A stretch of DNA of 64,000 nt, taken from a virus. Its lineage: Duplodnaviria; Heunggongvirae; Uroviricota; Caudoviricetes. A model generated the notes under the pieces. That model ran no database searches. It saw only the letters and a program-made list of their open reading frames with translations, and was not told the DNA's origin. Of the stretch, positions 1-12,888 are shown one piece after another. The DNA is taken from the IMG/VR virus record IMGVR_UViG_3300042473_000506. One strand, written 5' to 3'. Position numbers and translations under genes: made by a program. Within the stretch, counting starts at the first letter, position 1. Every line of letters begins with the position of its first letter.

Positions 1-8
1 CAAATAGG

Positions 9-156
9 TTTTTGAGAGACCAGCTATCTTTCTCAAGGACTCACTGGCTTGTCTCGTATGAAGGAGTTTAAACTACCTTGTGTTGCTACTGGTGTGTCAG
101 TCTCAAGAATAGGGACCTAGCGCACAAGGGACTCTACTTCAACGTCTATCTCAAAA
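9..156 (-). ncRNA. Structured ncRNA in tRNA array (family unknown)
   Basis: Terminal helix TTTTGAGATAGAC/GTCTCTCAAAA, inner helix CCTTGTG/CACAAGG; sits in a tRNA slot; shares AAGTAGAGTC..CTAGG with 724-934. Confidence 0.55.
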
Positions 157-158
157 CT

Positions 159-234
159 TGGCGTCCCATAGCGGATTCGAACCGCTGTAAATACCGTGAA
201 AGGGTACTATCCTAGGCCTCTAGATGAATGGGAC
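159..234 (-). tRNA. tRNA-Glu(TTC)
   Basis: Cloverleaf, loop CT-TTC-AC, GGTTCGAATCC, encoded CCA. Confidence 0.92.
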
Positions 235-239
235 ATGTT

Positions 240-314
240 TGGTAGTAACGGTGAGATTCGAACTCACACCGGGCACCGTATGAAGGTGTTGCACAACCAT
301 TATGCTACGTTACC
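240..314 (-). tRNA. tRNA with CAT anticodon (Met or Ile2)
   Basis: Cloverleaf, loop TT-CAT-AC, CCA. Confidence 0.85.
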
Positions 315-321
315 ATATCAA

Positions 322-398
322 AACACACTAGCGGAATCGAACCGTTACGCCTCCTGCACTACGTGAGGAAGCGGATGCCCACACTAGTTCTAGTGAGC
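322..398 (-). pseudogene. Degenerate or atypical tRNA-like element
   Basis: T-arm CGG-TTCGATT-CCG, weak acceptor, elongated anticodon arm with GTA at tip, no CCA. Confidence 0.45.
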
Positions 399-405
399 TT
401 TGATA

Positions 406-483
406 TGGTAGGACTGTCCGGATTCGAACCGGAACCTGGCGGATTAAAAGTCCGCTGTGCTAAACCGTTGACACTACAATCCC
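406..483 (-). tRNA. tRNA-Lys(TTT)
   Basis: GCGGA-CTTTTAA-TCCGC, T-arm, CCA. Confidence 0.93.
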
Positions 484-488
484 ATATA

Positions 489-565
489 TGGTCCCTAGCG
501 TCAGATTCGAACTGACACCTCATCGGTTAAGAGCCGAGTACGCTACCGTTAAACGCCAGCTAGGG
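489..565 (-). tRNA. tRNA-Lys(CTT)
   Basis: Loop CT-CTT-AA, T-arm GTCAG-TTCGAAT-CTGAC, CCA. Confidence 0.9.
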
Positions 566-631
566 TTGTTGCATATTAAATTTGTCTTTAATGTGCCAAC
601 CCTAGACCATATACGGGATCTAAGATTGACA

Positions 632-655
632 CTATCGTTTACCTGAACGTTTCAT
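632..655 (-). CDS. Mini-ORF MKRSGKR, putative regulatory leader peptide
   Basis: SD GAGGT 6 nt upstream, downstream of a perfect promoter, stop codon overlaps a 16-bp hairpin. Confidence 0.55.
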   Translation of the reverse strand: MKRSGKR

Positions 656-684
656 GTCATTACCTCTTTTGTGTTTAAGTTTCT

Positions 685-713
685 ATTATACAACCTTTTA
701 GGGTAGTTGTCAA
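685..713 (-). promoter_or_regulatory. sigma70 promoter
   Basis: TTGACA-17-TATAAT exact. Confidence 0.9.
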
Positions 714-723
714 CCGCATTGAA

Positions 724-934
724 TTTGTAAGCTGTTGCGTCCCTCATATCGCAACCATTTTCCCTTGTAATAAAGCCGGCAGGGTCAAGATACGTCACTT
801 GGGCTTTGTCCAGACGATACTCCAACTGTATTCCGATCTTCCGATCGGACGGGGATCGAACCCGCTACCTTCTACTGTTTTGGTAGTTCGAACATACCTA
901 GACAGCGTGACTCTACTTGCTGACACTTACAAAA
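724..934 (-). ncRNA. Structured ncRNA with internal T-arm; CAGCAA-family-like closing stem
   Basis: TTGTAAG/CTTACAA stem, then 3 nt + CAGCAA; GCGGG-TTCGATC-CCCGT; hairpin TCCGATC-GGAA-GATCGGA. Confidence 0.6.
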
Positions 935-936
935 CT

Positions 937-1014
937 TGGTGGACGATAGTGGAATCGAACCACTGTCACGGCAGGGTTGCTACCGCCTGTTATCCTTTAC
1001 AACAGTCATCGCCC
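937..1014 (-). tRNA. Atypical tRNA, anticodon uncertain (GCA or AGC)
   Basis: Good acceptor, T-arm and CCA; 8-nt anticodon loop TAGCAACC lacking U33. Confidence 0.55.
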
Positions 1015-1021
1015 ATTAACT

Positions 1022-1096
1022 TGGTGCCCACATATGGAATCGAACCACAATCCCCGGTTTCGTAGACCAGTGTATTATCCATTATACTATGCGGGC
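1022..1096 (-). tRNA. tRNA-Arg(ACG)
   Basis: Loop CT-ACG-AA, CCA. Confidence 0.9.
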
Positions 1097-1104
1097 AAAT
1101 AAAA

Positions 1105-1164
1105 CAGGATAGCATTTTTGGTTTCATTAACAGTGAAATTTTTGATTTTGCTGTTGCTATCCTA
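1105..1164 (-). ncRNA. CAGCAA stem-loop element 1
   Basis: AGGATAG-CAA-CAGCAA...CTATCCTG. Confidence 0.75.
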
Positions 1165-1227
1165 AAAATTTGTGCTGGGTAGGTGCTCCAGCGCCGATCG
1201 TCTTGATATTATCTCACGGCCCTTGTT

Positions 1228-1303
1228 TGGTGCCACAAACTGGACTCGAACCAGTAACACACGAATTTTCAATCCGCTGCTCTACCATTGGAGCTATTGT
1301 GGC
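1228..1303 (-). tRNA. tRNA-Phe(GAA)
   Basis: Loop TT-GAA-AA, CCA. Confidence 0.93.
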
Positions 1304-1311
1304 AAAATGTT

Positions 1312-1386
1312 TGGTGGAGGCCGGGGGTATCGAACCCCTCTAGTCACGATGCTTGCAAGGCAACGCCGCAGCCCTCTGCTGCCCCC
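1312..1386 (-). tRNA. tRNA-Ala(TGC), atypical D-arm
   Basis: G3:U70, loop CT-TGC-AA, CCA. Confidence 0.75.
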
Positions 1387-1395
1387 AAATTGTAT

Positions 1396-1474
1396 TGGCT
1401 CCGTGTGTGAGGATCGAACTCACCTAATCATTGATTAACAGTCAAGTCCTTGCACCATGCTTGGATTTCACGGA
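1396..1474 (-). tRNA. tRNA-Asn(GTT)
   Basis: Loop CT-GTT-AA, G73, CCA. Confidence 0.85.
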
Positions 1475-1482
1475 ATAAATTT

Positions 1483-1557
1483 TGGCGATCCTGCGGGGAA
1501 TCGAACCCCGATATCCGACTAGACAGGCCGGTATAATAACCACTATATGACAGGACC
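1483..1557 (-). tRNA. tRNA-Asp(GTC)
   Basis: CCGGC-CTGTCTA-GTCGG, CCA. Confidence 0.9.
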
Positions 1558-1564
1558 ATTAACT

Positions 1565-1651
1565 TGGTGGAGACGACTGGAGTCGAACCAGTAGTGCCTT
1601 TCGGGCGGCGGATTTACAGTCCACTGGGGTTACCAATTTTCCTACATCTCC
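1565..1651 (-). tRNA. tRNA-Tyr(GTA)
   Basis: Loop CT-GTA-AA, long variable arm, CCA. Confidence 0.92.
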
Positions 1652-1657
1652 ATAACT

Positions 1658-1733
1658 TGGCGCCACAGACGGGAATCGAACCCGCCTAAATCGGATAGAC
1701 AATCCGGTGCCCTACCCAGAGGACTACTGTGGC
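1658..1733 (-). tRNA. tRNA-Asp(GTC), second copy
   Basis: CCGGA-TTGTCTA-TCCGA, CCA. Confidence 0.88.
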
Positions 1734-1739
1734 AAAACT

Positions 1740-1838
1740 AATAACACAAGCATAACATTAACCAGTTATGCCTGCCACTCTCATCCCTCGCTGGCAGGGA
1801 GACTGAATGCCATCCTACAGTGCGTTGAGTGTTGTTAA
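1740..1838 (-). ncRNA. Structured ncRNA between tRNAs
   Basis: Terminal AACAACAC/GTGTTATT; hairpins CTGCCA/TGGCAG and GCATAAC/GTTATGC. Confidence 0.45.
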
Positions 1839-1840
1839 CT

Positions 1841-1917
1841 TGGTACTCCGTACGGGACTCGAACCCGTTTTTCCAACTTGAAAGGCTAGCGTCCTAAACC
1901 ACGTAGACGAACGAAGT
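1841..1917 (-). tRNA. tRNA-Glu(TTC), second copy
   Basis: Loop CT-TTC-AA, CCA. Confidence 0.88.
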
Positions 1918-1921
1918 AAAA

Positions 1922-2034
1922 TTCTTATACAACTACACACTCACAGGACTCGAACCTGCCAACTGGACTTCTCGTCCAGCTAGATACCACCTCTATCTGC
2001 TTGGCCTAAGCATTTGTGTGTATGTGTATAAGAA
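1922..2034 (-). ncRNA. tRNA-like RNA on an extended stem
   Basis: D-like, anticodon-like, variable and T (GGTTCGAGTCC) arms closed by ACACAC/GTGTGT plus TTCTTATAC/GTATAAGAA; no CCA. Confidence 0.65.
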
Positions 2035-2051
2035 CTTCTTATACTGTAAAT

Positions 2052-2063
2052 TTTTAAAGAACA
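2052..2063 (-). promoter_or_regulatory. boxA-like antitermination element
   Basis: TGTTCTTTAAAA after a CTAA-GCAA-TTAG hairpin, just downstream of a promoter. Confidence 0.55.
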
Positions 2064-2093
2064 TTTACATCTAATTGCTTAGTGTATGTGTTA

Positions 2094-2122
2094 ATTATAG
2101 CAAGGTTTTACCTCCTTGTCAA
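2094..2122 (-). promoter_or_regulatory. sigma70 promoter
   Basis: TTGACA-17-TATAAT exact. Confidence 0.9.
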
Positions 2123-2167
2123 TAGTCTTTGCAACTATTTTTGTTGTATTTTAACAACACTATTAAA

Positions 2168-2230
2168 CAGGATACTGTTTGCTTTTCACAGCCAAAAAGT
2201 GAAATATTTTGGTTTGCTGTAAGTATCCTA
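2168..2230 (-). ncRNA. CAGCAA stem-loop element 2
   Basis: AGGATAC-TTA-CAGCAA...GTATCCTG. Confidence 0.75.
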
Positions 2231-2233
2231 AAC

Positions 2234-2307
2234 TGGTGCGGGGTAAGGGAATCGAACCCTTAACTACTGGGTGGAAGCCAGTGATCTTACCATTAAACGA
2301 ACCACGC
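2234..2307 (-). tRNA. tRNA-Gly(TCC)
   Basis: ACTGG-CTTCCAC-CCAGT, CCA. Confidence 0.92.
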
Positions 2308-2314
2308 ATAAACT

Positions 2315-2389
2315 TGGCCCTCGAGGTGTATGTCGCAGTACACATTACTAACTATTGGCAAGGGTGTATACGGCCCCGCTTAACTCAAG
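2315..2389 (-). pseudogene. Degenerate tRNA-like element (TT-GCC-AA loop)
   Basis: Acceptor CCTTGAG/CTCGAGG + G-CCA; non-canonical T-loop; unpaired anticodon stem. Confidence 0.4.
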
Positions 2390-2397
2390 GATAAAAT

Positions 2398-2473
2398 TGG
2401 TGCAACCTGTAGGGATCGAACCTACTTCAATGGCTCTTCAGACCACCGCTATGACCACATCAGCTAAAGTTGC
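2398..2473 (-). tRNA. tRNA-Phe(GAA), second copy
   Basis: Loop CT-GAA-GA, CCA. Confidence 0.88.
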
Positions 2474-2480
2474 ATTGTAT

Positions 2481-2556
2481 TGGTGCCCCAGTCCGGAATC
2501 GAACCGACTTCCCCTGCTTACAAGACAGGACCTCATCCATTAAAGGCTTCAAGGGC
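2481..2556 (-). tRNA. tRNA-Thr(TGT)
   Basis: CCTGT-CTTGTAA-GCAGG, CCA. Confidence 0.85.
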
Positions 2557-2563
2557 AATAAAC

Positions 2564-2640
2564 TGGAACATCGGGTGGGACTCGAACCCACGACTGGACG
2601 GATTTGCAATCCGCTACATTGGCCGCTCTGTCACCGATGC
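2564..2640 (-). tRNA. tRNA-Cys(GCA)
   Basis: Loop TT-GCA-AA, U73, CCA. Confidence 0.92.
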
Positions 2641-2646
2641 ATAAAC

Positions 2647-2725
2647 TGGTCTGTGTGGCAGGATTCGAACCTGCGACCTCCGACTTCCAAGGCCGGCCGT
2701 CTGACCTGACTGACATTACACACAG
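2647..2725 (-). tRNA. tRNA-Pro(TGG)
   Basis: CCGGC-CTTGGAA-GTCGG, CCA. Confidence 0.9.
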
Positions 2726-2732
2726 ATAAAAT

Positions 2733-2807
2733 TGGTAGCCACGGACAATTTCGAAATGTCGACTCCCGCCTTATCAAGACGGTACTCTGCCTCTGAGTTA
2801 CGTGGCC
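2733..2807 (-). tRNA. tRNA-Ile(GAT)
   Basis: Loop TT-GAT-AA, CCA. Confidence 0.9.
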
Positions 2808-2812
2808 ATAAA

Positions 2813-3214
2813 TTACCACTCTGCGTATTCTGTTATTATACGAGAGTTTTTATCTTTTCTTTTTGTTGATTCTACACATCGCAGTTTAACTTCTTTTACA
2901 TCGCATATTTCTGCAATAGGAACGAGATATACTTTATCTAATTCATTTACATAGACTGCAATATAATCGATGTTACTTTCATTGTAAGAAACTCTATTTG
3001 TAAATGTGTTTTGAGATAGTTTAATTGTAACTATTCCGTTACTTTCTAACGATCTAAACTTAACTTGAATTCGTAAAAGTTTACCGTCGTGTCTATCTAA
3101 CACATAATCATAAGGACAACCTTGTGGCATTTTGCCAGTCCAATATCCTCTTTTGGCAGAAACGAGCACAAATGCTGCTTCTCCTATTTCACCTTTTTCG
3201 TTTGATATACTCAT
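2813..3214 (-). mobile_element. Free-standing PD-(D/E)XK endonuclease (group I intron-associated type), putative homing endonuclease
   Basis: GEIGE..YDYVLD..IQVK motifs; SD GGAG; TATAAATA upstream; inserted in the tRNA array. Confidence 0.75.
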
Positions 3215-3238
3215 AGTGTTCTCCTACAAGTATTTATA

Positions 3239-3284
3239 ACGCTCGCCAGGAAAGCGATTGTTATACCATTTAACTACAAGAGGA
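3239..3284 (-). pseudogene. 5' half of a tRNA (acceptor 5' strand, D-arm, anticodon arm; no T-arm)
   Basis: CCTCTTG-TA-GTTA-AATGGTA-TAAC-A-ATCGC-TTTCCTG-GCGA, then runs into the endonuclease promoter. Confidence 0.5.
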
Positions 3285-3296
3285 ATAAACTGCTTA

Positions 3297-3369
3297 GGGG
3301 TGACTAACGGGATTTGAACCCGTACTGACAAGGTCACAACATGTAGTGCTACCATTACACTATAGCCAC
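3297..3369 (-). tRNA. tRNA-His(GTG), CCA not encoded
   Basis: Loop TT-GTG-AC, C73. Confidence 0.85.
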
Positions 3370-3392
3370 ACCTAAGAAGTCTAACAAAATAT

Positions 3393-3466
3393 TGGCACCC
3401 GGACTAGGGATCGAACCTAGGCTAACAGAGTCAAAGTCTGTTGTGCTACCATTACACAATCCGGGA
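3393..3466 (-). tRNA. tRNA-Gln(TTG)
   Basis: ACAGA-CTTTGAC-TCTGT, CCA. Confidence 0.92.
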
Positions 3467-3474
3467 ACAAAAAA

Positions 3475-3531
3475 CAGGATGCTTATTTTTCAATTAAAAG
3501 TTGAATTTTTTGATTTGCTGGACGCATCCTA
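3475..3531 (-). ncRNA. CAGCAA stem-loop element 3
   Basis: AGGATGC-GTC-CAGCAA...GCATCCTG. Confidence 0.75.
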
Positions 3532-3535
3532 AAAC

Positions 3536-3610
3536 TGGCATACCCCCTTGGATTTGAACCAAGCCTAACGGTTTTGGAGACCGGCGTGCTGCCGCTGACA
3601 CTAGGGATAC
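3536..3610 (-). tRNA. tRNA-Trp(CCA)
   Basis: Loop CT-CCA-AA, G73, CCA. Confidence 0.88.
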
Positions 3611-3619
3611 ATAATAAAA

Positions 3620-3681
3620 CAGGATCAACTTTGGTTTTTTTGAATAATAAAAAAGTTTTTAAGTTTGCTGAACTGATCCTA
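3620..3681 (-). ncRNA. CAGCAA stem-loop element 4
   Basis: AGGATCA-GTT-CAGCAA...TGATCCTG. Confidence 0.75.
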
Positions 3682-3685
3682 AAAC

Positions 3686-3801
3686 TGGTACGACCGGTAG
3701 GTCTCGAACCTACAAGAGCACGGTAACTATGTTATGTGCCCCTTCCCCTGACCTATGCTATGAGCATAACGGGAGGTCTGCCATATTCCACTTACGGTCG
3801 C
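3686..3801 (-). tRNA. Atypical 116-nt Leu-like tRNA with elongated anticodon arm (CAT at tip)
   Basis: Acceptor GCGACCG/CGGTCGT, A73, CCA, T-arm, long variable arm, extra TATGC-TCATA-GCATA hairpin. Confidence 0.65.
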
Positions 3802-3809
3802 ATAATGTA

Positions 3810-3838
3810 ATTATACAATCTTATGTAGAATTTGTCAA
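3810..3838 (-). promoter_or_regulatory. sigma70 promoter
   Basis: TTGACA-17-TATAAT exact. Confidence 0.9.
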
Positions 3839-3844
3839 TTGTCT

Positions 3845-3936
3845 TGGCGGAAAGCAGAGGAGTCGAACCCCATCCCATTTCTGAGAACCCAGTTTTCAAG
3901 GCTGGTCGCAGGACCAACCCCGCTGCATTACTTTCC
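3845..3936 (-). tRNA. tRNA-Ser(TGA)
   Basis: Loop CT-TGA-AA, long variable arm, G73, CCA. Confidence 0.9.
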
Positions 3937-3945
3937 ATTTAAACT

Positions 3946-4021
3946 TGGTCTCGCATGAAGGACTCGAACCTTCGAAATCCTGGCCCCAAACCAGGTGGCA
4001 TAGCCGCTAACCGAATGCGAG
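3946..4021 (-). tRNA. tRNA-Pro(TGG), second copy
   Basis: CCTGG-TTTGGGG-CCAGG, CCA. Confidence 0.88.
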
Positions 4022-4028
4022 ATAAAAT

Positions 4029-4117
4029 TGGTGGAGCCTGAAGGAATTGAACCTCTTGCCAGCCACCCCACTTAATAATGGCTACCAGGTTACAGCTGGC
4101 AATGGGGGACAAGCTCC
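4029..4117 (-). tRNA. Atypical tRNA-Tyr(GTA) with truncated D-arm
   Basis: GCCAG-CTGTAAC-CTGGT, long variable arm, CCA, D region about 10 nt. Confidence 0.6.
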
Positions 4118-4331
4118 AAATTGTTAACACTCTCTTTCGAAAGTGCTTATTAAAACAAACTGTTACGCTATGCGTCCTGTTCTGATTCAGAGTCAGCAGG
4201 TACCAATTTGCTTTAATAACTAGTATTTTTTTATCCACATAAGGATAAGCCATCCACTAGTCCGCCCGTTTAGAACATGTTTTAAGTGCGTTCCCCGGGC
4301 CTCGTTCCCGTACTATATTACACTTTGCGAT

Positions 4332-4481
4332 CTACGACCGCCCTTGAGCAATCTCTCGCTTCCTACTTGCTTCGTAATACGCAGTTGCACGTTGTAACTT
4401 TTCCAAAATCATCTTGCGAAGATCTTGTTTAGTTAAAGTATGCGCTTTTGTAAACTCAGCTTGTCTCTTCAAATCTGTCAT
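4332..4481 (-). CDS. Hypothetical 49-aa protein directly after the attenuator
   Basis: SD AAGGA before ATG at 4481 (MTDLKRQ...). Confidence 0.6.
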   Translation of the reverse strand: MTDLKRQAEFTKAHTLTKQDLRKMILEKLQRATAYYEASRKREIAQGRS

Positions 4482-4493
4482 TCTTCCTTGCGG

Positions 4494-4528
4494 AAAACAA
4501 AAAACCCCAGGGTTTTTAATCCTAGGGT
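4494..4528 (-). terminator. Rho-independent terminator (attenuator 3:4 hairpin)
   Basis: ACCCTAGG-9nt-CCTGGGGT followed by TTTTTGTTTT. Confidence 0.85.
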
Positions 4529-4557
4529 CCTTGAAGTTTGTTGTGTTAACTTGTGTG

Positions 4558-4704
4558 TTACACGACAGTCCTCCGGACCCTAGAAATCTCTGGTGTACGA
4601 TCATATGATAGACTTCCCGCATTAATCGATAACCAACCGCAGGCTATTACACCTACCTGTTTGGGCATCGTATTAAATTGTTGATGTCTATTGGACGATT
4701 GCAT
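4558..4704 (-). CDS. 48-aa leader peptide containing all 20 amino acids
   Basis: MQSSNRHQQFNTMPKQVGVIACGWLSINAGSLSYDRTPEISRVRRTVV; AG-rich SD; contains the antiterminator strand. Confidence 0.75.
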   Translation of the reverse strand: MQSSNRHQQFNTMPKQVGVIACGWLSINAGSLSYDRTPEISRVRRTVV

Positions 4705-4763
4705 TTTGTTTTCTCTTTAAAACCTTTTGTTACATACACTACCTTATTGCAGTGTATGTTCTA

Positions 4764-4792
4764 ATTATACAGTTATTTAGCATTGTTGTCAA
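4764..4792 (-). promoter_or_regulatory. sigma70 promoter heading the leader/tRNA array
   Basis: TTGACA-17-TATAAT exact. Confidence 0.9.
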
Positions 4793-4926
4793 CCCTTATT
4801 TGTTCTTTTGAACAAAAAGTTTTTAACAACTTCTCTTCCTAACTAGTCTCTATTGTACTGCTTCTATTTATGTCTGTCAATAAGTATGTGGTTAAAATGC
4901 CACAATTTTGGCGAATTTTTATTTTA

Positions 4927-5412
4927 TTACTTTTCTACTACACCGACAAGGTGTAGCCTAGGGTCATCAGAGCAATTCATAAAAGTGTGGGGCTTTCGAG
5001 TATCAACCCACCAAACTAATTTTTTATTCAAGTGTATTATTCTACCAGATTGAAAAACAAAATAGCAACTAGGATTAGTTATTAAAGGTATGTGTATTCT
5101 TGGAGTTTCGTCTCGATGGATACTATAACATGCATAAGGGTCTACCCACATTAATCTAGTTCTAGTTAATTTATATTGAGCTATTATATTTTCAAATATA
5201 GTATTTTTAAAAAATGGATTTAAATTAGTATATGTTAATTCCTGTCCAGTACTTCTTCCTACTGCACTAGTCCAAGGATCTTCATTATCTTTAAACTGAA
5301 CTCCGGCTTGTCGCCCTTTGTGTCCGTAGGATGTCCATTGGATGTTTTCTTCAATTAGATTAAAGGCATCTAATATTTCTTGTTCGTCAATTTTTCCTAA
5401 AACTTTTATCAT
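4927..5412 (-). CDS. 2OG-Fe(II) oxygenase (Asp/Asn beta-hydroxylase-like)
   Basis: HRD...RIHIPLITN...HTFMN...RLHLV. Confidence 0.75.
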   Translation of the reverse strand: MIKVLGKIDEQEILDAFNLIEENIQWTSYGHKGRQAGVQFKDNEDPWTSAVGRSTGQELTYTNLNPFFKNTIFENIIAQYKLTRTRLMWVDPYACYSIHRDETPRIHIPLITNPSCYFVFQSGRIIHLNKKLVWWVDTRKPHTFMNCSDDPRLHLVGVVEK

Positions 5413-5460
5413 GCTAAAATTATATCCGCGGCTTGGTCTTCAGTAATTCGTTGTCAACCA

Positions 5461-5964
5461 CTATTTTCCAAATGTTATGGTATGCACTTTGTAACTACTA
5501 TTTAATGCAAAATCTAACACATCTACTACTTCATTAACTGATAATCTATTACCTAGAATATGTTTAACTCTGTTAGTATCGATTAATCCCGGCTTTAAAT
5601 TAATTATATATGGTAAGGTAAACTCTTTAGACTTGCAAAATATATCCTGTAGTTCTTTATCTTTGCAATATTTTTCAGGACCAGTAGTGTATCGGGATGA
5701 TATATTAACAATAACTTTGTTTGTTCCTTCCCATAGCGTGTAAACTTCTTTTAATAATTGTAACTGAGAATCATCAAAATTATTGTATGCATTGTTGATA
5801 AACATATCAGCATCTTTAATTTCTTCTAAAATTTTAATTCTGGATACCGGACTGAATATGTTGTAACCGTTGCTTCTTGAAAATCCAAGAACATCGTGCG
5901 ACTGAAAATGATCAAAGAACGCTTTCCCTAATCCTTGTGTATGACCTGTTATTGCAATTTTCAT
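5461..5964 (-). CDS. Short-chain dehydrogenase/Rossmann-fold protein
   Basis: IAITGHTQGLG, FINNA, IVNISS. Confidence 0.8.
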   Translation of the reverse strand: MKIAITGHTQGLGKAFFDHFQSHDVLGFSRSNGYNIFSPVSRIKILEEIKDADMFINNAYNNFDDSQLQLLKEVYTLWEGTNKVIVNISSRYTTGPEKYCKDKELQDIFCKSKEFTLPYIINLKPGLIDTNRVKHILGNRLSVNEVVDVLDFALNSSYKVHTITFGK

Positions 5965-6608
5965 AGTTTACACTTTAATCTCAGACTTAATCCAATTTTA
6001 GGAACACGGTTAGTAGTAACTGAGAAGTGTAACTGGTTGCATGGGAAACTAACTAAACTTCCTATTTTCCAACTAATTATAGTGTCAATGCTCATTCCGT
6101 CTAATGTTGAATCTGTGAAAATTATACCTAACTCGTTTAATCGAGAATCCCACTTGTTATACTCAAGTCCTTGAATATCTTCATAACTTGTAACCATATT
6201 GTTCCATCCCTTAGTCCAAGGCTGTTTGACAAAGGTAGTTGCTTCACCTAGCCATTTTTGATTTAACAATAGCAAATACGAAACACTATCTTCAGGAATA
6301 TATAAAGGAAACAAAAAAACTGTATAATCTAAACTGTGAGTATTGTCTTTACCAGTATCAACGTGAATGGGATACTGACTTGCAGTTTCGAGATAGTTCC
6401 CACTAGGTTCGTCATCTAAAATAACATAACCTAAAGACTCAATAAATGTGTATAATTCAGGTATATCTGTTCGAGTAGGAGGTGTTCCTCTAAGATCTTT
6501 TCCTTTAAAGTTGGTATCATAGGATTGTTGTTTTTTATAAAAGTCTAGCATCTTTGCTACTAGATCTAAAGGAACTGTGTCTTTTGACCAAGAAATAATT
6601 TTGCTCAT
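5961..6608 (-). CDS. Hypothetical, possible 2OG-Fe(II) oxygenase fold
   Basis: HVD...LH spacing. Confidence 0.5.
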   Translation of the reverse strand: MSKIISWSKDTVPLDLVAKMLDFYKKQQSYDTNFKGKDLRGTPPTRTDIPELYTFIESLGYVILDDEPSGNYLETASQYPIHVDTGKDNTHSLDYTVFLFPLYIPEDSVSYLLLLNQKWLGEATTFVKQPWTKGWNNMVTSYEDIQGLEYNKWDSRLNELGIIFTDSTLDGMSIDTIISWKIGSLVSFPCNQLHFSVTTNRVPKIGLSLRLKCKL

Positions 6609-6612
6609 AATA

Positions 6613-7620
6613 TCAAGTCATCCACCAAAATAGCCTGTTAGACCAGCCTTTTGTATTCCATTTCATATCCCAATCTTCTGCCCAACTTTTATAAAAATAT
6701 AAATTAGATCCTCTTGCACCGTCTACATAGGGTATTGTTTGATAATCATCAAGTTTTTCTAACACGTTCATAGGAAAATATAAAAGACTGGCATGCTTAG
6801 GATGCACGATAAGATGTGTATCTATACGTCCCCAATAGTTTTTAGCAGTATGATAATCTTGTATAGTATAAGGAGTCATTGCAAAATTTATACTAACATC
6901 GCTGACTTCTTTTAGATCACGGACACCACTTATTAATTCTTCCCAGGAAGATCCTCTGCGAAACCATTCGTATGTTTCTCCATAACCATCTGCACTGACA
7001 CTGCATTTAACAGATTGCCAACCCTTCCATAGTTCATCTCTAAAGGGACTAATGCCGTTTGTTATATATTCTAATGTACAATGACTTCTATCAAACTGCT
7101 GTAAGTATTCTAATATCTTCCAATGGTTAGGGTCGAGAAAAGGCTCGCCGCCGGTAAATTTTAGACAAGTTATCTGCGGTAGTAATTCTCCTAACTCTTT
7201 TAAAAATTCGTCAGTTAATTCAAAACTATCGGAAGCTATCGGAGTTATCTTTAAAAACTTTTTCCATCCTGTAGATAACTCAGGACCACAATGAGCACAA
7301 GTTAGTTGGCACTTGTTACTCATTTTAAATTGAATTGTTTTTAATGTCCTATCTTGTGTGGCAAACGGTGTACTGGTACGCATACTAGGTTGATCTGCAG
7401 ATTCTAAAATTTCGCATCTGTTACAAAATGGTCGAGTCTTTTTAGAATAACCGTTCTTTAACTCCTCTCTTAATTCTAGTAATTTAGAATTATTCCATGC
7501 TGCCTGTATTCCGTTATTAATATGTGCTATCCTTGCATCCTTAGACGGTTCTGCACAGCACGGTCGCGTCCATCCGTCTGTTTCGATGCTCATCATATTT
7601 TCTAACCAGGCACATTTCAT
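6613..7620 (-). CDS. Radical SAM protein with N-terminal Cys (twitch/SPASM-like) domain
   Basis: CQLTCAHC, TGGEPF, TNG; start at ATGA overlap with upstream stop. Confidence 0.85.
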   Translation of the reverse strand: MKCAWLENMMSIETDGWTRPCCAEPSKDARIAHINNGIQAAWNNSKLLELREELKNGYSKKTRPFCNRCEILESADQPSMRTSTPFATQDRTLKTIQFKMSNKCQLTCAHCGPELSTGWKKFLKITPIASDSFELTDEFLKELGELLPQITCLKFTGGEPFLDPNHWKILEYLQQFDRSHCTLEYITNGISPFRDELWKGWQSVKCSVSADGYGETYEWFRRGSSWEELISGVRDLKEVSDVSINFAMTPYTIQDYHTAKNYWGRIDTHLIVHPKHASLLYFPMNVLEKLDDYQTIPYVDGARGSNLYFYKSWAEDWDMKWNTKGWSNRLFWWMT

Positions 7621-9047
7621 ACTACAGCATTTGCAAAGTTTTGTGCCAATTGTATTCTTAATTGATTGTTCAAGCCTGGCCAGTGTACTACCCAATCACC
7701 CTGCTGCCACTGTCCGTCGTTGCCTAACATGTCAATTCCGTCGACTCCATACATCTTGTAATCGTAGCTGTTCATAGTACGTTGTGGTACAAGTTTAATA
7801 ATATCCTTGTAGGTAACATAAGTGTCGATAACACACTGCTGATCAAACCATTTCTTATCGTTGAGGTAGTCCTTGCGCTTACCGATCATATCCTCTAACC
7901 ACACCCGACTGTTCTCACTGTTCTTGACAAAGAAGCTGCCTGTGTTAAGACTGGCAATGTCAGTGGCCATGATGATGTCATAGCTGTCATCAATTACATC
8001 TTCTATCTTGCAATTGAAGTTGGTAATCATAGCATCGTTGTCTAACCACCACACCCAAGATAGATTAGGATTATCGTTCATTACTTGCAAAATATGCACA
8101 AACTTATCAAAGTGAACTGCTTCTGAACTAAAGTCGTCCATTTTAGAAAAGGCTTTGTATCCGCGATGTGTTGCATACTTGTCTTTGTTATTGAACCAAG
8201 TGTGTTTGGCAAGTTCAAAATGTGGCTCATTGAACATACTAACAATAGCGTACTTGCTAGGATCACCACGCTTCCAAAGTTGCGGAATACTGTACCACAA
8301 TCCCTCAAAATCAATGTAAGGATCTTTTAAGGACTCTAGTGTGATATGCAGGCTTAGGCTAGGAATAGGACTGAACAACATAACATCGTCTTTGTTCCAT
8401 ACCTGATTGATAGTTTCATTTTCATCTTTACGCAATATCCATTCTGCTGCATCATCAAAGTGTTTGCGATACTTGTCAAATACAGCACGACTGGCTAAGC
8501 AGGTATAGGTACTGTGCTTAACTGTACGATAATGCCTGTGGGGACCAAACAACAAAATGCTAGGGTAAACTTGTGCTGTGTAACGGTACACATCGTCATG
8601 CGGATTGACTGCAATCATCTTGCCTGTTTGCTGCTCAAACTGTGTTACAGTATCTAGCATGTCTTGTATTGCTGTTTGAAAATGCGGATAGTCATCTTCT
8701 GCATGATACCACAAGTCTGTACACTGTTGATCTACAATTTCATAGACTTTCTTGCAAGTGTAGCTAGCACCAGTTCCGCCTGTTACTGCTACAAACTCTG
8801 TAGACGATTTGCATTGTGCAAGGATGATTTTAAAATCAGCAACTGCTTCGGGTGTGCTGTTGTCATCTAAGACTACTAGCTTAACATCGTGCCCTTCACA
8901 GTGATTAATACTATCTACAATACTGCTAAGGCAAACATTTACAAGCTCATGCTTAGGTACTTTGTGATAGCGGCCGCCCATGTTTTCACCGTTGAGCATG
9001 TTAACACGGGTACAAGTTCTTAATACAATTAGTAAGTTTCTTTTCAT
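7617..9047 (-). CDS. Two-domain glycosyltransferase (GT-A plus GMA12/MNN10-like)
   Basis: LDDNS, AEDDY; WVWWLDNDA, LNTGSFF..N, DQQ, HWPG. Confidence 0.75.
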   Translation of the reverse strand: MKRNLLIVLRTCTRVNMLNGENMGGRYHKVPKHELVNVCLSSIVDSINHCEGHDVKLVVLDDNSTPEAVADFKIILAQCKSSTEFVAVTGGTGASYTCKKVYEIVDQQCTDLWYHAEDDYPHFQTAIQDMLDTVTQFEQQTGKMIAVNPHDDVYRYTAQVYPSILLFGPHRHYRTVKHSTYTCLASRAVFDKYRKHFDDAAEWILRKDENETINQVWNKDDVMLFSPIPSLSLHITLESLKDPYIDFEGLWYSIPQLWKRGDPSKYAIVSMFNEPHFELAKHTWFNNKDKYATHRGYKAFSKMDDFSSEAVHFDKFVHILQVMNDNPNLSWVWWLDNDAMITNFNCKIEDVIDDSYDIIMATDIASLNTGSFFVKNSENSRVWLEDMIGKRKDYLNDKKWFDQQCVIDTYVTYKDIIKLVPQRTMNSYDYKMYGVDGIDMLGNDGQWQQGDWVVHWPGLNNQLRIQLAQNFANAVV

Positions 9048-9655
9048 CTGTTCATCATCTGTGTAATGTATGCTGGGTCTGCAATCTTTTCAATCACACA
9101 CTCAATTTCGTAGCAGCCTTCGCTGTGTGTTGTATCTGGCAAACTGTAGTCAAAGCCTGCATCATTATCGCACATATGACGTAAGCGCCATTCACCTAGT
9201 GGGAGTGCCTCTTGGACTTCTGCAAGCAGAGTGCTAGGTAAGTAATAACGAAAATGCCCCGCACCTGCAAAGCGACTGGGCAGATCTTTCTTCTTTTCGT
9301 ATAACAACCAATGTGGTACAACAATTACCATGTAACCTCCCACTTTAAGTACTCGGAACCACTCCTGTAACACTTGTTCCCAATACGGAATGTGCTCAAG
9401 TACATGACTGCTATATACTGCATCTTGGCTAGCATCCTCAAACGGCAGGTGCAACCCGTCGTAGCCCGGATAACCCTGATCAATACCAATTGCATTTTCT
9501 ACAATAGGAACAACTTCTCGTCCTGCATTGTATCCTTGGTATCCAATTTCTAAAATGTTCTTACCGCTTAGGTACTTTTCTAAAAATCCACTTTCAATTT
9601 TCTGAGCATAACTTTTAATACTTTCTATGCCTACTGGTCTATTCTTGTCAAACAT
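9044..9655 (-). CDS. Class I SAM-dependent methyltransferase
   Basis: ILEIGY, SSHVLEHI, RVLKVGG. Confidence 0.85.
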   Translation of the reverse strand: MFDKNRPVGIESIKSYAQKIESGFLEKYLSGKNILEIGYQGYNAGREVVPIVENAIGIDQGYPGYDGLHLPFEDASQDAVYSSHVLEHIPYWEQVLQEWFRVLKVGGYMVIVVPHWLLYEKKKDLPSRFAGAGHFRYYLPSTLLAEVQEALPLGEWRLRHMCDNDAGFDYSLPDTTHSEGCYEIECVIEKIADPAYITQMMNR

Positions 9656-9763
9656 GATCTGTTCCTTTGAGATATTTAGTACATTATATACGCACAGAAT
9701 AAAATTATCTACTACTATATTGATTTTACCATTAACTGTAAATATAATAAACTGGAGTAGGAT

Positions 9764-10042
9764 ATGGGCGATTTCTTTAAATTAGTAGCAGAGTTAGGGT
9801 TTCCAATAGCTGGTGCAATAGCGGCTGGCTACTTTGTTTTCCTAACATTGAAGTTTATTTTAGCTGGTGTAACATCTAGCGTCAACGGAATGGGTGGTAT
9901 TATTAAAGGTCTAGACAGTCGAGTAGATACTATGACCAACCAATTACAACGTATTGATGTTAAAGTAAGTCATGCATTGGGACTACAGCCCGATTATGAT
10001 CGGATTGCTCGTGCTGATCAAGTTGATCAAAGGAAAGACTAA
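9764..10042 (+). CDS. Small membrane protein (holin-like, TM + coiled coil)
   Basis: LGFPIAGAIAAGYFVF; paralogous N-terminus to 10369. Confidence 0.6.
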   Translation: MGDFFKLVAELGFPIAGAIAAGYFVFLTLKFILAGVTSSVNGMGGIIKGLDSRVDTMTNQLQRIDVKVSHALGLQPDYDRIARADQVDQRKD

Positions 10043-10191
10043 TGAATAAGATTAAGCAACTGCAAACTGAACTAGCAAAAGATTTAGTAAATTTTGAACA
10101 GAGCGAGTTAACTGAAGAACAGTTAGAAATGATTGAAGAAACTTATCAGCAAGTATATCTTATTCTCGGCACAGTAGAAAGCACCTTATGA
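10042..10191 (+). CDS. Hypothetical 49 aa
   Basis: TAATG and ATGA couplings to neighbours. Confidence 0.55.
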   Translation: MNKIKQLQTELAKDLVNFEQSELTEEQLEMIEETYQQVYLILGTVESTL

Positions 10192-10367
10192 AATACTTAG
10201 ACTACGACTGGGATCTTCGAAAAGATCGAATTATTCTAGACAGAGAAATTAACATAGACAAGTTAGAGTGGCGTGCTGGAGATCACTTTGAGCTTAAAAA
10301 TATAGACGGGCAAAGTCAATTAGTCAAAGTAGACCCCGTACTAAAATTTACCAAAGGGTATAAGTAA
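10188..10367 (+). CDS. Hypothetical 59 aa
   Basis: ATGA overlap, open frame to TAA. Confidence 0.6.
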   Translation: MKYLDYDWDLRKDRIILDREINIDKLEWRAGDHFELKNIDGQSQLVKVDPVLKFTKGYK

Positions 10368-10368
10368 T

Positions 10369-10731
10369 ATGGATATAGCAGAAATGATCAACAAATATGG
10401 TTTTCCTATTGTTGCTGCGGGCGGCATGGGATACTTTATCTATTACGTGTGGACCTGGGTAACCACAGAAATCAAACCAGTTATAGGACAAGCCAATGGA
10501 ACTCTTATTGCTCTTATTGATCGTATTCGTATGCTGGACAATGACCTTATAAGATTAAATCAAAAAGTTGAAACAGTTATGGAATTGCGTGGCAAGACAA
10601 TTGAGAAAGAACGTATTGCTGCTGATGCATCTATTAACAAAGAACCTGAACCTGTTAAAGAAAAACTATCTCCAATACCTCAGAGAAAATTTACACCTCA
10701 AGAAATTAACGACGCAGCAGCAGACGATTAA
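10369..10731 (+). CDS. Small membrane protein (holin-like)
   Basis: YGFPIVAAGGMGYFIYYVW. Confidence 0.6.
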   Translation: MDIAEMINKYGFPIVAAGGMGYFIYYVWTWVTTEIKPVIGQANGTLIALIDRIRMLDNDLIRLNQKVETVMELRGKTIEKERIAADASINKEPEPVKEKLSPIPQRKFTPQEINDAAADD

Positions 10732-10824
10732 TTTCTTTAATGTTGTCAGAGTTTCCTAAAACAAAATAAGGCCAATAATATGCCAGGATCCAAAGCCTGG
10801 CATATTCATCTAGAACATCTTCTA

Positions 10825-12888
10825 TCACTTTGATGTAGCTCTGTAGGTACCGTCCCAATCTGCGGCTAGATCTCTTGTACGCATCTCAGCAATACGCTCA
10901 ATCCATAATTCGTAATAGTGATCCATCTTGCCGTCAAACTCACCTGTAAGTTCTTGGCACAGTGTAATGGCCTTGTCCCACTGTTGTTGACGATAATATT
11001 CTAACATTAGTTCATGATGCTCTCGAGCCATGATCCAATCTGCTGCCACAGTGGCATCTGGATTGTAAAACACTGTGAATATGTTAACGCCAATAGTCTT
11101 ACCTTTAACAGCAATACAGTCTAATGGAATTGTAAAGTAATTGTCGCCTACTCGAGCCTGTGTAAACTCGCTAATGATGATCAACACACCATAGTTCTTG
11201 GTCTGTCCTTCTAGTCGAGCAGTTAAACTTACTGAGTCGCCTAGTACGTCATAACCAAATCGATCCTTACTACCAATGTTACCAATTAGTGTAGGGCCAG
11301 TGTTGATACCCAATCCGCAACCTACTAAGGGCTTACCTTCTTTGGTAAGTTCAATATTAAACAGCTCAACAGCGTGCAACATTTCAAGACCTGTACGCAC
11401 TCCTGCTAACACATGATCCGGATCTTGTTCTTCTTGAATAGGAGCACCGTGTACGTGTAATGACGCATCACCTATGAACTTGATCAAACACCCATTGTTA
11501 CGCAGTATAGGCTCCGCAATGGCAGTCATGTAACGGTTCATAGTCTGTGTAAATGCCACAACGTCATCACCGTATGTCTCACCTAGTCCCGTAAAGTTAC
11601 GCATGTCGCTCATGATAACAGTTAAATCTTTCTTCTCACCACCCAGTTTGATAAAGCTAGGATCTTTTTGTAAGCGTTCAACAATAACAGGATTTACGTA
11701 ACTGCCAAACTGTTTCTTAATCTGACTCTTCTGTAGGAACTCGCTTACAAACTTGATGCCATAGGCATGCAGAGCGACCAAAGTTGTGCCAACTGCAAAG
11801 GCAGTAGCATCGAATAAGAATAAAAGACTGCTGTAAGCATAGATGCTGCCAGCAATGCCACCGCCAATAATAACAACTGTCGCTGCCAATCCCGCATAGG
11901 TCCACCTCGTTAAAAATAATAGCAATATACCTGCAATTAGAATAGCTACTGTTTCTAAGTCATCTGCGTAGCCTGGACGCTGAATAGTTTTGCCGTTAAG
12001 CATTGTACCTAATAAACTTGCCTGCATATCCTGTGGCCAAATTTCGCCGCGAGCAGTAGCTACTGGTTGAACTAATCCTGCCGCACTTAATCCCACTATA
12101 ACGATTTCACCGTTGAAGTCTTTGGGCAATTTGGCAAGACTGTGTTGCTTGGGTTGCTGGCTCCAATCAATCCATACACGACTCAATGGATCTACGTTGA
12201 TGCGATTCAGTTTAGGAATACGCACTGCTTCAACCCCCATGTCTGTAATCTTAACTTGTATTTTTGTATCTCCTGCCGCAGTCCTAAGTGTTTCTAAACC
12301 GATTGCAGGATGCACAGTTTCTCCGCTTAGTATTAGCAACGGCATACGACGAACAACACCGTCTATTTCAGGAAAAGTATTTACAACACCTACACCAGCC
12401 GCACGTTCTTCTAGCATAGGAACGTTGGCGATAATACCTGGATATTCTACTAGACTACCTTCTGGGTCAACGCCTACAATTTGTACAGCACTTCCGAACG
12501 TCTTATTCTTGCCTGTGGTGCTGGCAACCTGCGGCAGCACCACTGAATATTTTTCTAAGGCTTTGGCCAGTTGAGTATCTTGATTGAATCGATCTGATTC
12601 AGGCATGAGGATATTGAGCACAACAAGTCCAGCGTTTCTATCATATAGGTCTTTAATAATGTCAGCATATAGTCCTCGAGGAAAAGGGAATTGTCCATAC
12701 TTGTCTAATGCAGCTTCATCTATATTAACAGTATGTACAGGAATGTCTTGTTTAGGTTGGCTAATGATAAGTTGATCGAAGTATCGCAGTCTAACTGATT
12801 CAACAAATGCAGGATCTGCAAATCTGACACCTGCTATCAATACCAATGTAATTAATGCCAACCACGGGCTTAGTAATATTTTTTTCAT
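10825..12888 (-). CDS. CHASE2-domain adenylate/guanylate cyclase (class III)
   Basis: IDEAALDKYGQFPFPR (CHASE2), 3 TM, SDMRNFT, KFIGD, GDSVSLTARLE. Confidence 0.92.
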   Translation of the reverse strand: MKKILLSPWLALITLVLIAGVRFADPAFVESVRLRYFDQLIISQPKQDIPVHTVNIDEAALDKYGQFPFPRGLYADIIKDLYDRNAGLVVLNILMPESDRFNQDTQLAKALEKYSVVLPQVASTTGKNKTFGSAVQIVGVDPEGSLVEYPGIIANVPMLEERAAGVGVVNTFPEIDGVVRRMPLLILSGETVHPAIGLETLRTAAGDTKIQVKITDMGVEAVRIPKLNRINVDPLSRVWIDWSQQPKQHSLAKLPKDFNGEIVIVGLSAAGLVQPVATARGEIWPQDMQASLLGTMLNGKTIQRPGYADDLETVAILIAGILLLFLTRWTYAGLAATVVIIGGGIAGSIYAYSSLLFLFDATAFAVGTTLVALHAYGIKFVSEFLQKSQIKKQFGSYVNPVIVERLQKDPSFIKLGGEKKDLTVIMSDMRNFTGLGETYGDDVVAFTQTMNRYMTAIAEPILRNNGCLIKFIGDASLHVHGAPIQEEQDPDHVLAGVRTGLEMLHAVELFNIELTKEGKPLVGCGLGINTGPTLIGNIGSKDRFGYDVLGDSVSLTARLEGQTKNYGVLIIISEFTQARVGDNYFTIPLDCIAVKGKTIGVNIFTVFYNPDATVAADWIMAREHHELMLEYYRQQQWDKAITLCQELTGEFDGKMDHYYELWIERIAEMRTRDLAADWDGTYRATSK

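Follow-up and report, generated by a model that had tools for sequence, protein, structure and literature searches.

In this work we describe an element that precedes the transfer RNA (tRNA) genes of an uncultured virus and that we interpret, with a probability that we put at roughly 0.6, as the 5΄ control region of a phage tRNA operon: a ribosome-mediated attenuator whose leader peptide, by sampling all amino acids, would gauge the general speed of decoding. The element lies on the minus strand at positions 4494 to 4792 of a 64 000-nucleotide (nt) stretch of viral DNA, hereafter the window (IMG/VR record IMGVR_UViG_3300042473_000506). The window is taken from a 98.6-kb IMG/VR viral contig from fresh water which, being rated 28% complete, should belong to a phage of roughly 350 kb; its gene direction is the minus strand, and 21 tRNA genes lie within its first 4 kb. 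An original prediction had placed at this site a trp/his-type attenuator, with a leader open reading frame (ORF) using all 20 amino acids. The parts of the element are the following.

4852-4880, minus strand: upstream tandem promoter P2, TTGACA-17-TACAAT, 11/12 by promoter scoring.
4764-4792, minus strand: promoter P1, TTGACA (4792-4787), 17-nt spacer, TATAAT (4769-4764), 12/12.
4734-4757, minus strand: 9-bp hairpin at the 5΄ end of the transcript, from fold prediction.
4705-4733, minus strand: A-rich spacer with a purine-rich, Shine-Dalgarno-like AAAGAG, read directly and from the alignment.
4558-4704, minus strand: leader ORF of 48 codons plus TAA (ATG 4704-4702, TAA 4560-4558), with 20 amino acids and 37 distinct codons.
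4622-4676, minus strand: conserved hairpin inside the ORF (TTAAT/ATTAA, CCA/TGG, AGGY/GCCT), from the RNAalifold consensus.
4585-4602, minus strand: nearly invariant 18-nt core GATCGYACACCRGAGATT, encoding DRTPEI, from the alignment.
4575-4585, minus strand: segment 2, the 5΄ arm of the antiterminator, TTCTAGGGTCC, in codons 40-44, with the conserved core AGGGTCC at 4581-4575, from direct reading and the alignment.
4531-4574, minus strand: interior of the antiterminator, a middle helix GAGG/CTTC and an inner hairpin with the stop codon, from folds of the homologues.
4520-4530, minus strand: segment 3, GGACCCTAGGA, which pairs with segment 2 in the antiterminator and with segment 4 in the terminator, from covariation.
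4494-4528, minus strand: intrinsic terminator with an 8-bp stem (extendable to 12), a 9-nt loop and the tail TTTTTGTTTT, from reading, folds and covariation.

The original prediction had named the perfect promoter, the 48-codon ORF with its full inventory and 37 codons, an 11-bp helix between segments 2 and 3 (2:3) and a terminator that uses the same strand, and all of these are present in the window. The terminator stem is formed by ACCCTAGG (4528-4521) and CCTGGGGT (4511-4504), and the tail comes next, at 4503-4494. The 2:3 helix joins TTCTAGGGTCC and GGACCCTAGGA over 11 positions, one of them a G-U pair; only its 7-bp core proved general among relatives, the outer four pairs being specific to the window. 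The codons of the ORF include AGA, AGG (twice), CGG, ATA, CTA and five Ser codons. Folding of the 264-nt transcript yields -82.5 kcal/mol, with a z of -6.0 relative to shuffled sequences, and an Rfam 15 scan of positions 1-12000 of the window at E ≤ 1, with the T-box, transfer-messenger RNA (tmRNA), 6S, RNase P and signal recognition particle families included, gave nothing within 4494-4792.

The unit recurs in many other phages. With the 48-residue peptide as query against viral contigs we recovered 72 loci, some on contigs of 345-383 kb, and an exact-match scan with the 18-nt core gave 114 viral stretches; the whole unit is present in at least 114 uncultured viral contigs, and nucleotide and peptide scans together with the alignment of loci show it kept in dozens of related ones. 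The results below refer to a first set of 55 distinct peptides (from the 72 loci), an enlarged set of 87 distinct peptides and an alignment of 54 loci. Judged by these homologues, the unit is a real, widespread and strongly selected element. Blastn and tblastn searches of the isolated phages in the GenBank collection found no relative of the element, which no cultured phage there carries, and returned a single distant match, to the neighbouring hydroxylase. Among prokaryote genome contigs the sole copy of the leader is on a 6.2-kb contig (L084, JBBAKF010000113.1) of a Polynucleobacter sp. metagenome-assembled genome; this is probably a phage contig binned with that genome, and the bin offers a weak lead to the host.

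The element stands at the head of tRNA genes. In 49 of 49 loci scanned it shares the strand of an array of 12-26 tRNA genes and precedes the first of these by 400-1200 nt, and the same-strand position ahead of a tRNA array was found in 20 of 21 further loci. Promoter P1 is kept across the alignment of 54 loci, and 68 of 77 related loci carry two to four near-consensus tandem promoters, about 85-100 nt apart, within the 500 nt upstream of the leader ATG. A promoter scoring at least 11/12 is absent from the interval that separates the terminator from the first tRNA in 42 of the 54 loci, and in many such loci the proximal promoter of the leader is the only one of that quality through the 4 kb downstream, which hold 15-22 tRNAs. 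Since no other consensus promoter is present in those loci, transcripts of the array must cross the leader terminator.

Comparison of the homologues supports the view that the leader ORF is really coding. Its frame is open in every homologue (72 of 72 first-round loci), over 46-51 codons where the stop lies within the sequence and over 43-64 codons in the enlarged set, whose few longer values come from upstream in-frame ATGs. Insertions and deletions in the ORF are all multiples of three and take any length past the stop codon, while the other two frames hold 0-8 stops, which are present in all but two peptides. The start context AAAATG is invariant, with a GAG/AGGA stretch 9-13 nt upstream in the homologues.

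The sequences also support selection on what this peptide contains. All 20 amino acids occur in 54 of the 55 distinct peptides of the first set and in 77 of the 87 (43-64 residues long) of the enlarged set. By comparison, 48-residue windows from the long ORFs of the window hold all 20 in 2.2% of cases, and a downstream small ORF of similar length does so in 3 of 38 loci. When residues were shuffled within alignment columns, 27 ± 2.7 of the 55 peptides were complete, with a maximum of 36 in 2000 shuffles. The excess of the observed 54 over these shuffles arises because rare residues relocate instead of vanishing: Cys is spread over eight columns, moves are likewise seen for Tyr, Lys, His and the internal Met, and a shift of Tyr (SYD to SYW) is seen exactly where SYD has become SLD. 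Highly divergent relatives that share little beyond DRTPEI are still complete in 43-50 residues. In 48 of the 55 peptides the inventory is already complete between Met1 and the PE, before segment 2, and 39 residues hold all 20 in 0.36% of the null. The leaders contain 33-41 distinct codons each, against a null mean of 28.9, and 37 or more are reached in 0.16% of 48-codon null windows. No single residue is enriched, the rare ones being present once or twice.

Our analyses further show that the end of this ORF is built into a pair of mutually exclusive RNA structures. Nearly all of the 54 homologues share the same three-tier fold from segment 2 to segment 3, with an outer helix whose core is AGGGUCC/GGACCCU, a middle helix GGAG/CUYC and an inner hairpin that holds the stop codon, and in all homologues the stop codon lies inside this antiterminator domain. 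The domain is predicted at -21 to -33 kcal/mol and the terminator at -15 to -18 kcal/mol. In 84 distinct sequences realigned with a covariance model, a procedure biased in favour of that model, the antiterminator reaches 91% pairing, with compensatory changes at 15 of 18 pairs; none of 500 shuffles scored as high, and slid controls were 21-62% paired. Compensatory changes are found at all 11 pairs of the middle helix and inner hairpin. MAFFT shifts the GGGGTCCC variants by one column, which creates spurious unpaired cells at two antiterminator pairs, and the covariance-model realignment partly cured this. In the terminator, a G+C-rich stem of 8-12 bp followed by a T-run, 98.9-99.8% of cells are paired across 53-84 distinct sequences, also with compensatory changes. 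A variable nucleotide shared by the two structures stays compatible with both partners, which are A/G in the antiterminator (AU 52, GC 26, GU 5) and G/A in the terminator (UG 46, CG 23, UA 11), and in distant relatives segments 2, 3 and 4 co-vary, as from GGGTCC/GGACCC to GGGTTCC/GGAACCC. The expectation that related phages would show, ahead of their tRNA arrays, a conserved ORF of high codon diversity with covarying 2:3 and 3:4 helices is borne out by the aligned relatives.

Two further hairpins accompany the switch. The one at the 5΄ end, which probably stabilises the transcript, shows compensatory changes in the three outer of six predicted pairs (for example CG 23, UA 14, AU 12). The one inside the ORF shows few (CG 33, UG 16, AU 3); as a speculation, it might be a pause or timing element for the polymerase that could synchronise polymerase and ribosome. 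A natural deletion is seen in locus L160 (IMGVR_UViG_3300008110_005229), which lacks the antiterminator interior and has segment 2 directly next to the 3΄ arm of the terminator and an ORF extended to 52 codons.

We propose that transcription from the two tandem host-type promoters, of which relatives have up to four, yields a short messenger RNA that would begin with the stabilising hairpin, and that a ribosome loads on the A-rich leader and reads 36-40 codons of unusual variety, for which all 20 amino acids are needed. It would then meet segment 2 of the antiterminator domain, within which the ORF ends. A ribosome that keeps pace with the polymerase would cover or melt segment 2 as segment 3 emerges, so that 3:4 pairs and transcription stops at about 4494. 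A ribosome that is late, as it may be when a tRNA is in short supply or cleaved, an amino acid is lacking or translation is damaged, would allow 2:3 to form before the terminator and the polymerase to read through into the small ORF and the tRNA genes. Fast translation would in this way lead to termination, and slow or absent translation to read-through; the race, its polarity in vivo and its biological trigger are what we infer from this architecture.

The absence of a protecting helix bears on that polarity. A trp-like 1:2 helix was looked for by folding, and none of any strength was found. When the RNA is folded without a ribosome, segment 2 sits in a weak local hairpin until segment 3 has been made, and then 2:3 forms with a probability of 1.0. 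With the 1:2 protector absent, read-through and not termination would be expected of a leader that is not translated. The mutually exclusive 2:3 and 3:4 helices of the original prediction are kept and covary.

The geometry of the ribosome also sets a limit on what could be sensed. Ribosome footprints place the point at which messenger RNA leaves the entry channel at roughly +13 from the P-site codon. When codon 39 (GAG) occupies the A site, the codon in the P site begins at 4593 and +13 falls at 4581, the first base of the conserved core; therefore a ribosome held in codons 1-39 should leave the arm free, and one that has moved further should cover or melt it. Stalling on any codon had been expected to act as the signal, and this is possible for codons ~1-39, but later stalls would cover the arm. 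More tentatively, and at somewhat less than even odds, we suggest a kinetic race sensor of the whole decoding apparatus: the leader would sample every amino acid and a near-maximal range of codons within about 39 codons, so that the ribosome falls behind whenever any tRNA runs short or is cleaved, and the phage tRNAs are then transcribed; this would give supply on demand and a counter to tRNA-targeting defence. Host anticodon nucleases or a mismatch in codon usage could cause such a shortage.

Several observations weigh against the attenuator as we read it. The rule of completeness is not absolute, since 10 of the 87 distinct peptides lack one amino acid, mostly Cys, and hold 19, and in 7 of the 55 peptides of the first set one residue type first appears at the arm or beyond it. 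A ribosome at the stop codon would sit just past segment 2, and its block of 2:3 there is argued from sterics only. Most of the array in the window is supplied independently, by internal perfect promoters at 3838, 2122 and 713. Direct control would here comprise an ORF of 49 residues, an unannotated conserved stretch, tRNA-Pro and one tRNA-like gene, as far as the next perfect promoter at 3838-3810; that internal promoters might narrow the reach had been foreseen in the original prediction. The number of internal promoters varies widely among related phages. Finally, the codons of the leader are read by phage-encoded tRNAs to no greater degree than those of other phage genes (0.80 versus 0.82 in 13 loci). 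A leader tuned to the phage's own tRNAs, as a dedicated feedback on them, is not supported by these values; the gauge, if it is a gauge, would read the total tRNA pool.

The RNA data have to be read with the same care. In four studies, lake metatranscriptomes yielded contigs with the leader, some of them continuing across the terminator into downstream sequence, and one near-identical 134-nt contig ends exactly at 4494. Over 4497-4701 the contig depth exceeds that immediately beyond the terminator 5-20-fold, and the leader has the highest depth of the 1.2-kb stretch, but the drop is confounded by a drop in conservation at the same place, as relatives align to the conserved part only, and assembled contigs can show neither transcript ends nor levels, nor can their depth rank regions. 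We see in them a weak hint that the leader is expressed and leave them out of the evidence for termination.

The degree of conservation is a further point against our interpretation. A divergent peptide had been predicted, and the opposite was found: ten residues are invariant, DRTPEI among them, only two positions of the 18-nt core vary, both synonymously, and synonymous divergence (pS) in the leader is 0.32 versus 0.67 in the neighbouring small ORF, that is, half. The near-invariant DRTPEI core and the conservation of the peptide exceed what a pure sampler of codons needs, and our model gives no reason for them. One would be at hand if the switch worked as described and the terminated leader RNA, the peptide or both had in addition a job of their own, which could account for the near-invariant core, the ten residues and the constrained synonymous sites. 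In Sinorhizobium meliloti the released attenuator RNA and leader peptide, rnTrpL and peTrpL, are functional on their own, acting in trans (PMC6614838, PMC7298713). The 5΄ hairpin and the two to four tandem promoters would imply a very abundant short RNA here, and the contig depth of the leader, confounded as it is, points the same way. Nevertheless, we have no target or partner for either product, known or predicted, and no similarity in sequence to rnTrpL/peTrpL; the peptide has neither a confident AlphaFold fold nor a match in Pfam or PHROGs, and the triple constraint on segment 3, with the overlap of coding and RNA structure, already accounts for much of the conservation. We regard such an additional role as unlikely.

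Could the peptide itself be the product? If so, a leaky terminator would end the gene of a stand-alone micro-protein of 48 residues, and the complete inventory and the 2:3 helix would be by-products. The conserved frame, the in-frame insertions and deletions, the invariant DRTPEI and the possession of its own promoter, ribosome-binding site and terminator are what one would expect of such a gene. However, the ratio of non-synonymous to synonymous divergence (pN/pS) of the leader is 0.66, the entropy is nearly equal over the three codon positions (26.6, 26.0 and 30.9), without periodicity, and AlphaFold on the 55-sequence alignment gave no confident fold (predicted local distance difference test, pLDDT, 59; predicted template modelling score, pTM, 0.21), which lends no support to a fold and is no sign of disorder; together these argue against a folded protein as the main selected product. 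Searches with the leader peptide in Pfam and PHROGs at E ≤ 1 gave no match, and its longest hydrophobic stretch, of about 14 residues, is not that of a type I toxin-like transmembrane peptide. A micro-protein would also leave the relocation of rare residues, far beyond the column shuffles, without a cause, as well as a stop codon that always lies inside a covarying antiterminator sharing an arm with the terminator, and downstream tRNAs that in most loci have no other consensus promoter. We give this explanation little credence.

The invariant residues might alternatively belong to an arrest peptide. TnaC, SecM and SpeFL are leader peptides of this kind, which stall the ribosome that makes them. 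In the present case a nascent W...SYDRTPEI would stall it immediately ahead of segment 2, the signal being a specific factor or small molecule and not general tRNA supply. The amino acids W25, D, R, T, P, E and I do not vary and the core changes only synonymously, and the motif ends exactly where, by the geometry inferred above, a stalled ribosome would leave the antiterminator arm free. This would not explain selection for all 20 amino acids and high codon diversity, though; the spacing of W, D and P is unlike that of TnaC, and the context suggests no ligand or factor, which makes a sensor of this kind very doubtful in our view. A structured non-coding RNA with an incidental ORF, for which the strong fold (z = -6.0), the helices covarying throughout and the constrained synonymous sites might speak, is so improbable in the face of a frame open in every homologue, many insertions and deletions all in frame, frequent stops in the other frames, the invariant AAAATG and the lack of an Rfam match that we set it aside.

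The attenuator that we favour has relatives among known systems. The enterobacterial leaders trpL, hisL, pheL, leuL, thrL and ilvL are attenuators, and ilvL and thrL sense more than one amino acid. Like these, the element has a short leader ORF, here predicted to be translated, and a terminator whose 5΄ arm can pair alternatively with a segment overlapped by the ORF, with the position of the ribosome deciding. It differs from them in that no codon forms a run and every amino acid is present, mostly once to three times; in that no 1:2 protector hairpin exists, so that the untranslated state should read through; and in that phage tRNA genes and not biosynthetic genes would be controlled, with both peptide and RNA strongly conserved. 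T-box leaders bind one uncharged tRNA directly, need no translation and sense a single tRNA species. They resemble the present element in being leader RNAs that choose between terminator and antiterminator by tRNA charging, but no T-box match to Rfam was found here. Leaders that attenuate upon general stalling of ribosomes are also known, as those of vmlR, bmrCD and mef/msr. Another, PA5471.1 ahead of armZ in Pseudomonas aeruginosa, forms the 3:4 terminator when the leader is fully translated and allows read-through when ribosomes stall, and it responds to general translation trouble, including the defective tRNA maturation of a cca mutant (PMC13041342). By architecture and folding, with no protector helix, our element would follow the same logic, its function being deduced; no rule for the composition of the leader is reported for PA5471.1 (PMC13041342). 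Systems of the PA5471.1 type are cellular, control antibiotic-resistance factors and have no link to tRNA genes, whereas here a phage small ORF and 12-26 tRNA genes lie downstream.

Full-text literature searches turned up no account of phage tRNA genes preceded by a leader ORF or attenuator, nor of an all-amino-acid leader, and as far as the literature searched goes the proposed logic has so far been found only for single amino acids or antibiotics. The element bears on how phages control their tRNA genes and on why large phages carry near-complete tRNA sets. If our interpretation is true, expression of phage tRNAs would be homeostatic and responsive to depletion or cleavage of host tRNAs, and the leader would offer a natural and compact means of reporting global decoding speed. 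It would also be a rare case of selection on the amino-acid inventory of a peptide, and not on its sequence or fold, and a regulatory principle not described for tRNA genes or viruses.

Downstream of the terminator, the window contains the following features.

4332-4481, minus strand: highly charged ORF of 49 residues with a strong ribosome-binding site, AAGGAAG, the first gene past the terminator in the ORF list.
3849-4021, minus strand: tRNA-Pro (3946-4021) and an 88-nt tRNA-like gene (3849-3936), without a consensus promoter of their own, from promoter and tRNA scans.
3810-3838, 2094-2122 and 685-713, minus strand: perfect TTGACA-17-TATAAT promoters inside the array, from promoter scoring.

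The 49-residue ORF starts 13 nt after the terminator tail, and homologues of 48-58 residues follow the terminator in 38 of 53 loci; it would be the first gene that the switch controls. It gave no match in Pfam or PHROGs at E ≤ 1. In the 88-nt tRNA-like gene the acceptor stem is clean, a T arm is present and the variable arm is long. RNA-library contigs cover this gene; ARAGORN does not call it, and its best Rfam match, to tRNA-Sec at 33.9 bits, is below the 47-bit threshold. Between the small ORF and tRNA-Pro, at about 4195-4335 (minus strand), lies a stretch that is nucleotide-conserved in many loci, with a pseudo-peptide 'MAYPYVDKKI...' that recurs in different contexts; it is covered by RNA-library contigs, has a fold z-score of -1.7 and may be an undescribed small RNA.

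Some minor observations concern the arrays. Behind the Cys-less leaders L172, L165 and L144, tRNA-Cys was found in none of three arrays, and behind Cys-containing leaders in 12 of 17, numbers too small for a conclusion, given that the loci are related and the arrays incomplete. Between tRNA genes of the window there are three copies (3475-3529, 3620-3679 and 2168-2228, minus strand) of a 55-61-nt element, GGAU-N6...CAGCAA...N6-AUCCUG, with weak Rfam matches to 'Class I RNA'. An ORF of 133 residues within the array (2813-3214, minus strand) encodes a PD-(D/E)XK endonuclease (PF11645, E = 7e-19), which may be a mobile or homing-type nuclease.

A scan for tRNA and tmRNA genes found no tmRNA in the window. 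Several relatives have one 1-3.5 kb upstream of the leader, with tags ending in AMAA, ALAA or similar, at these positions.

L037, 2125-2541: tmRNA.
L039, 2029-2498: tmRNA.
L040, 1277-1675: tmRNA.
L044, 2795-3211: tmRNA.
L069, 502-962: tmRNA.
L071, 2175-2606: tmRNA.

Further upstream of the leader, at 10825-12888 (minus strand), the window encodes a protein of 687 residues with a CHASE2 sensor domain and an adenylate/guanylate cyclase domain.

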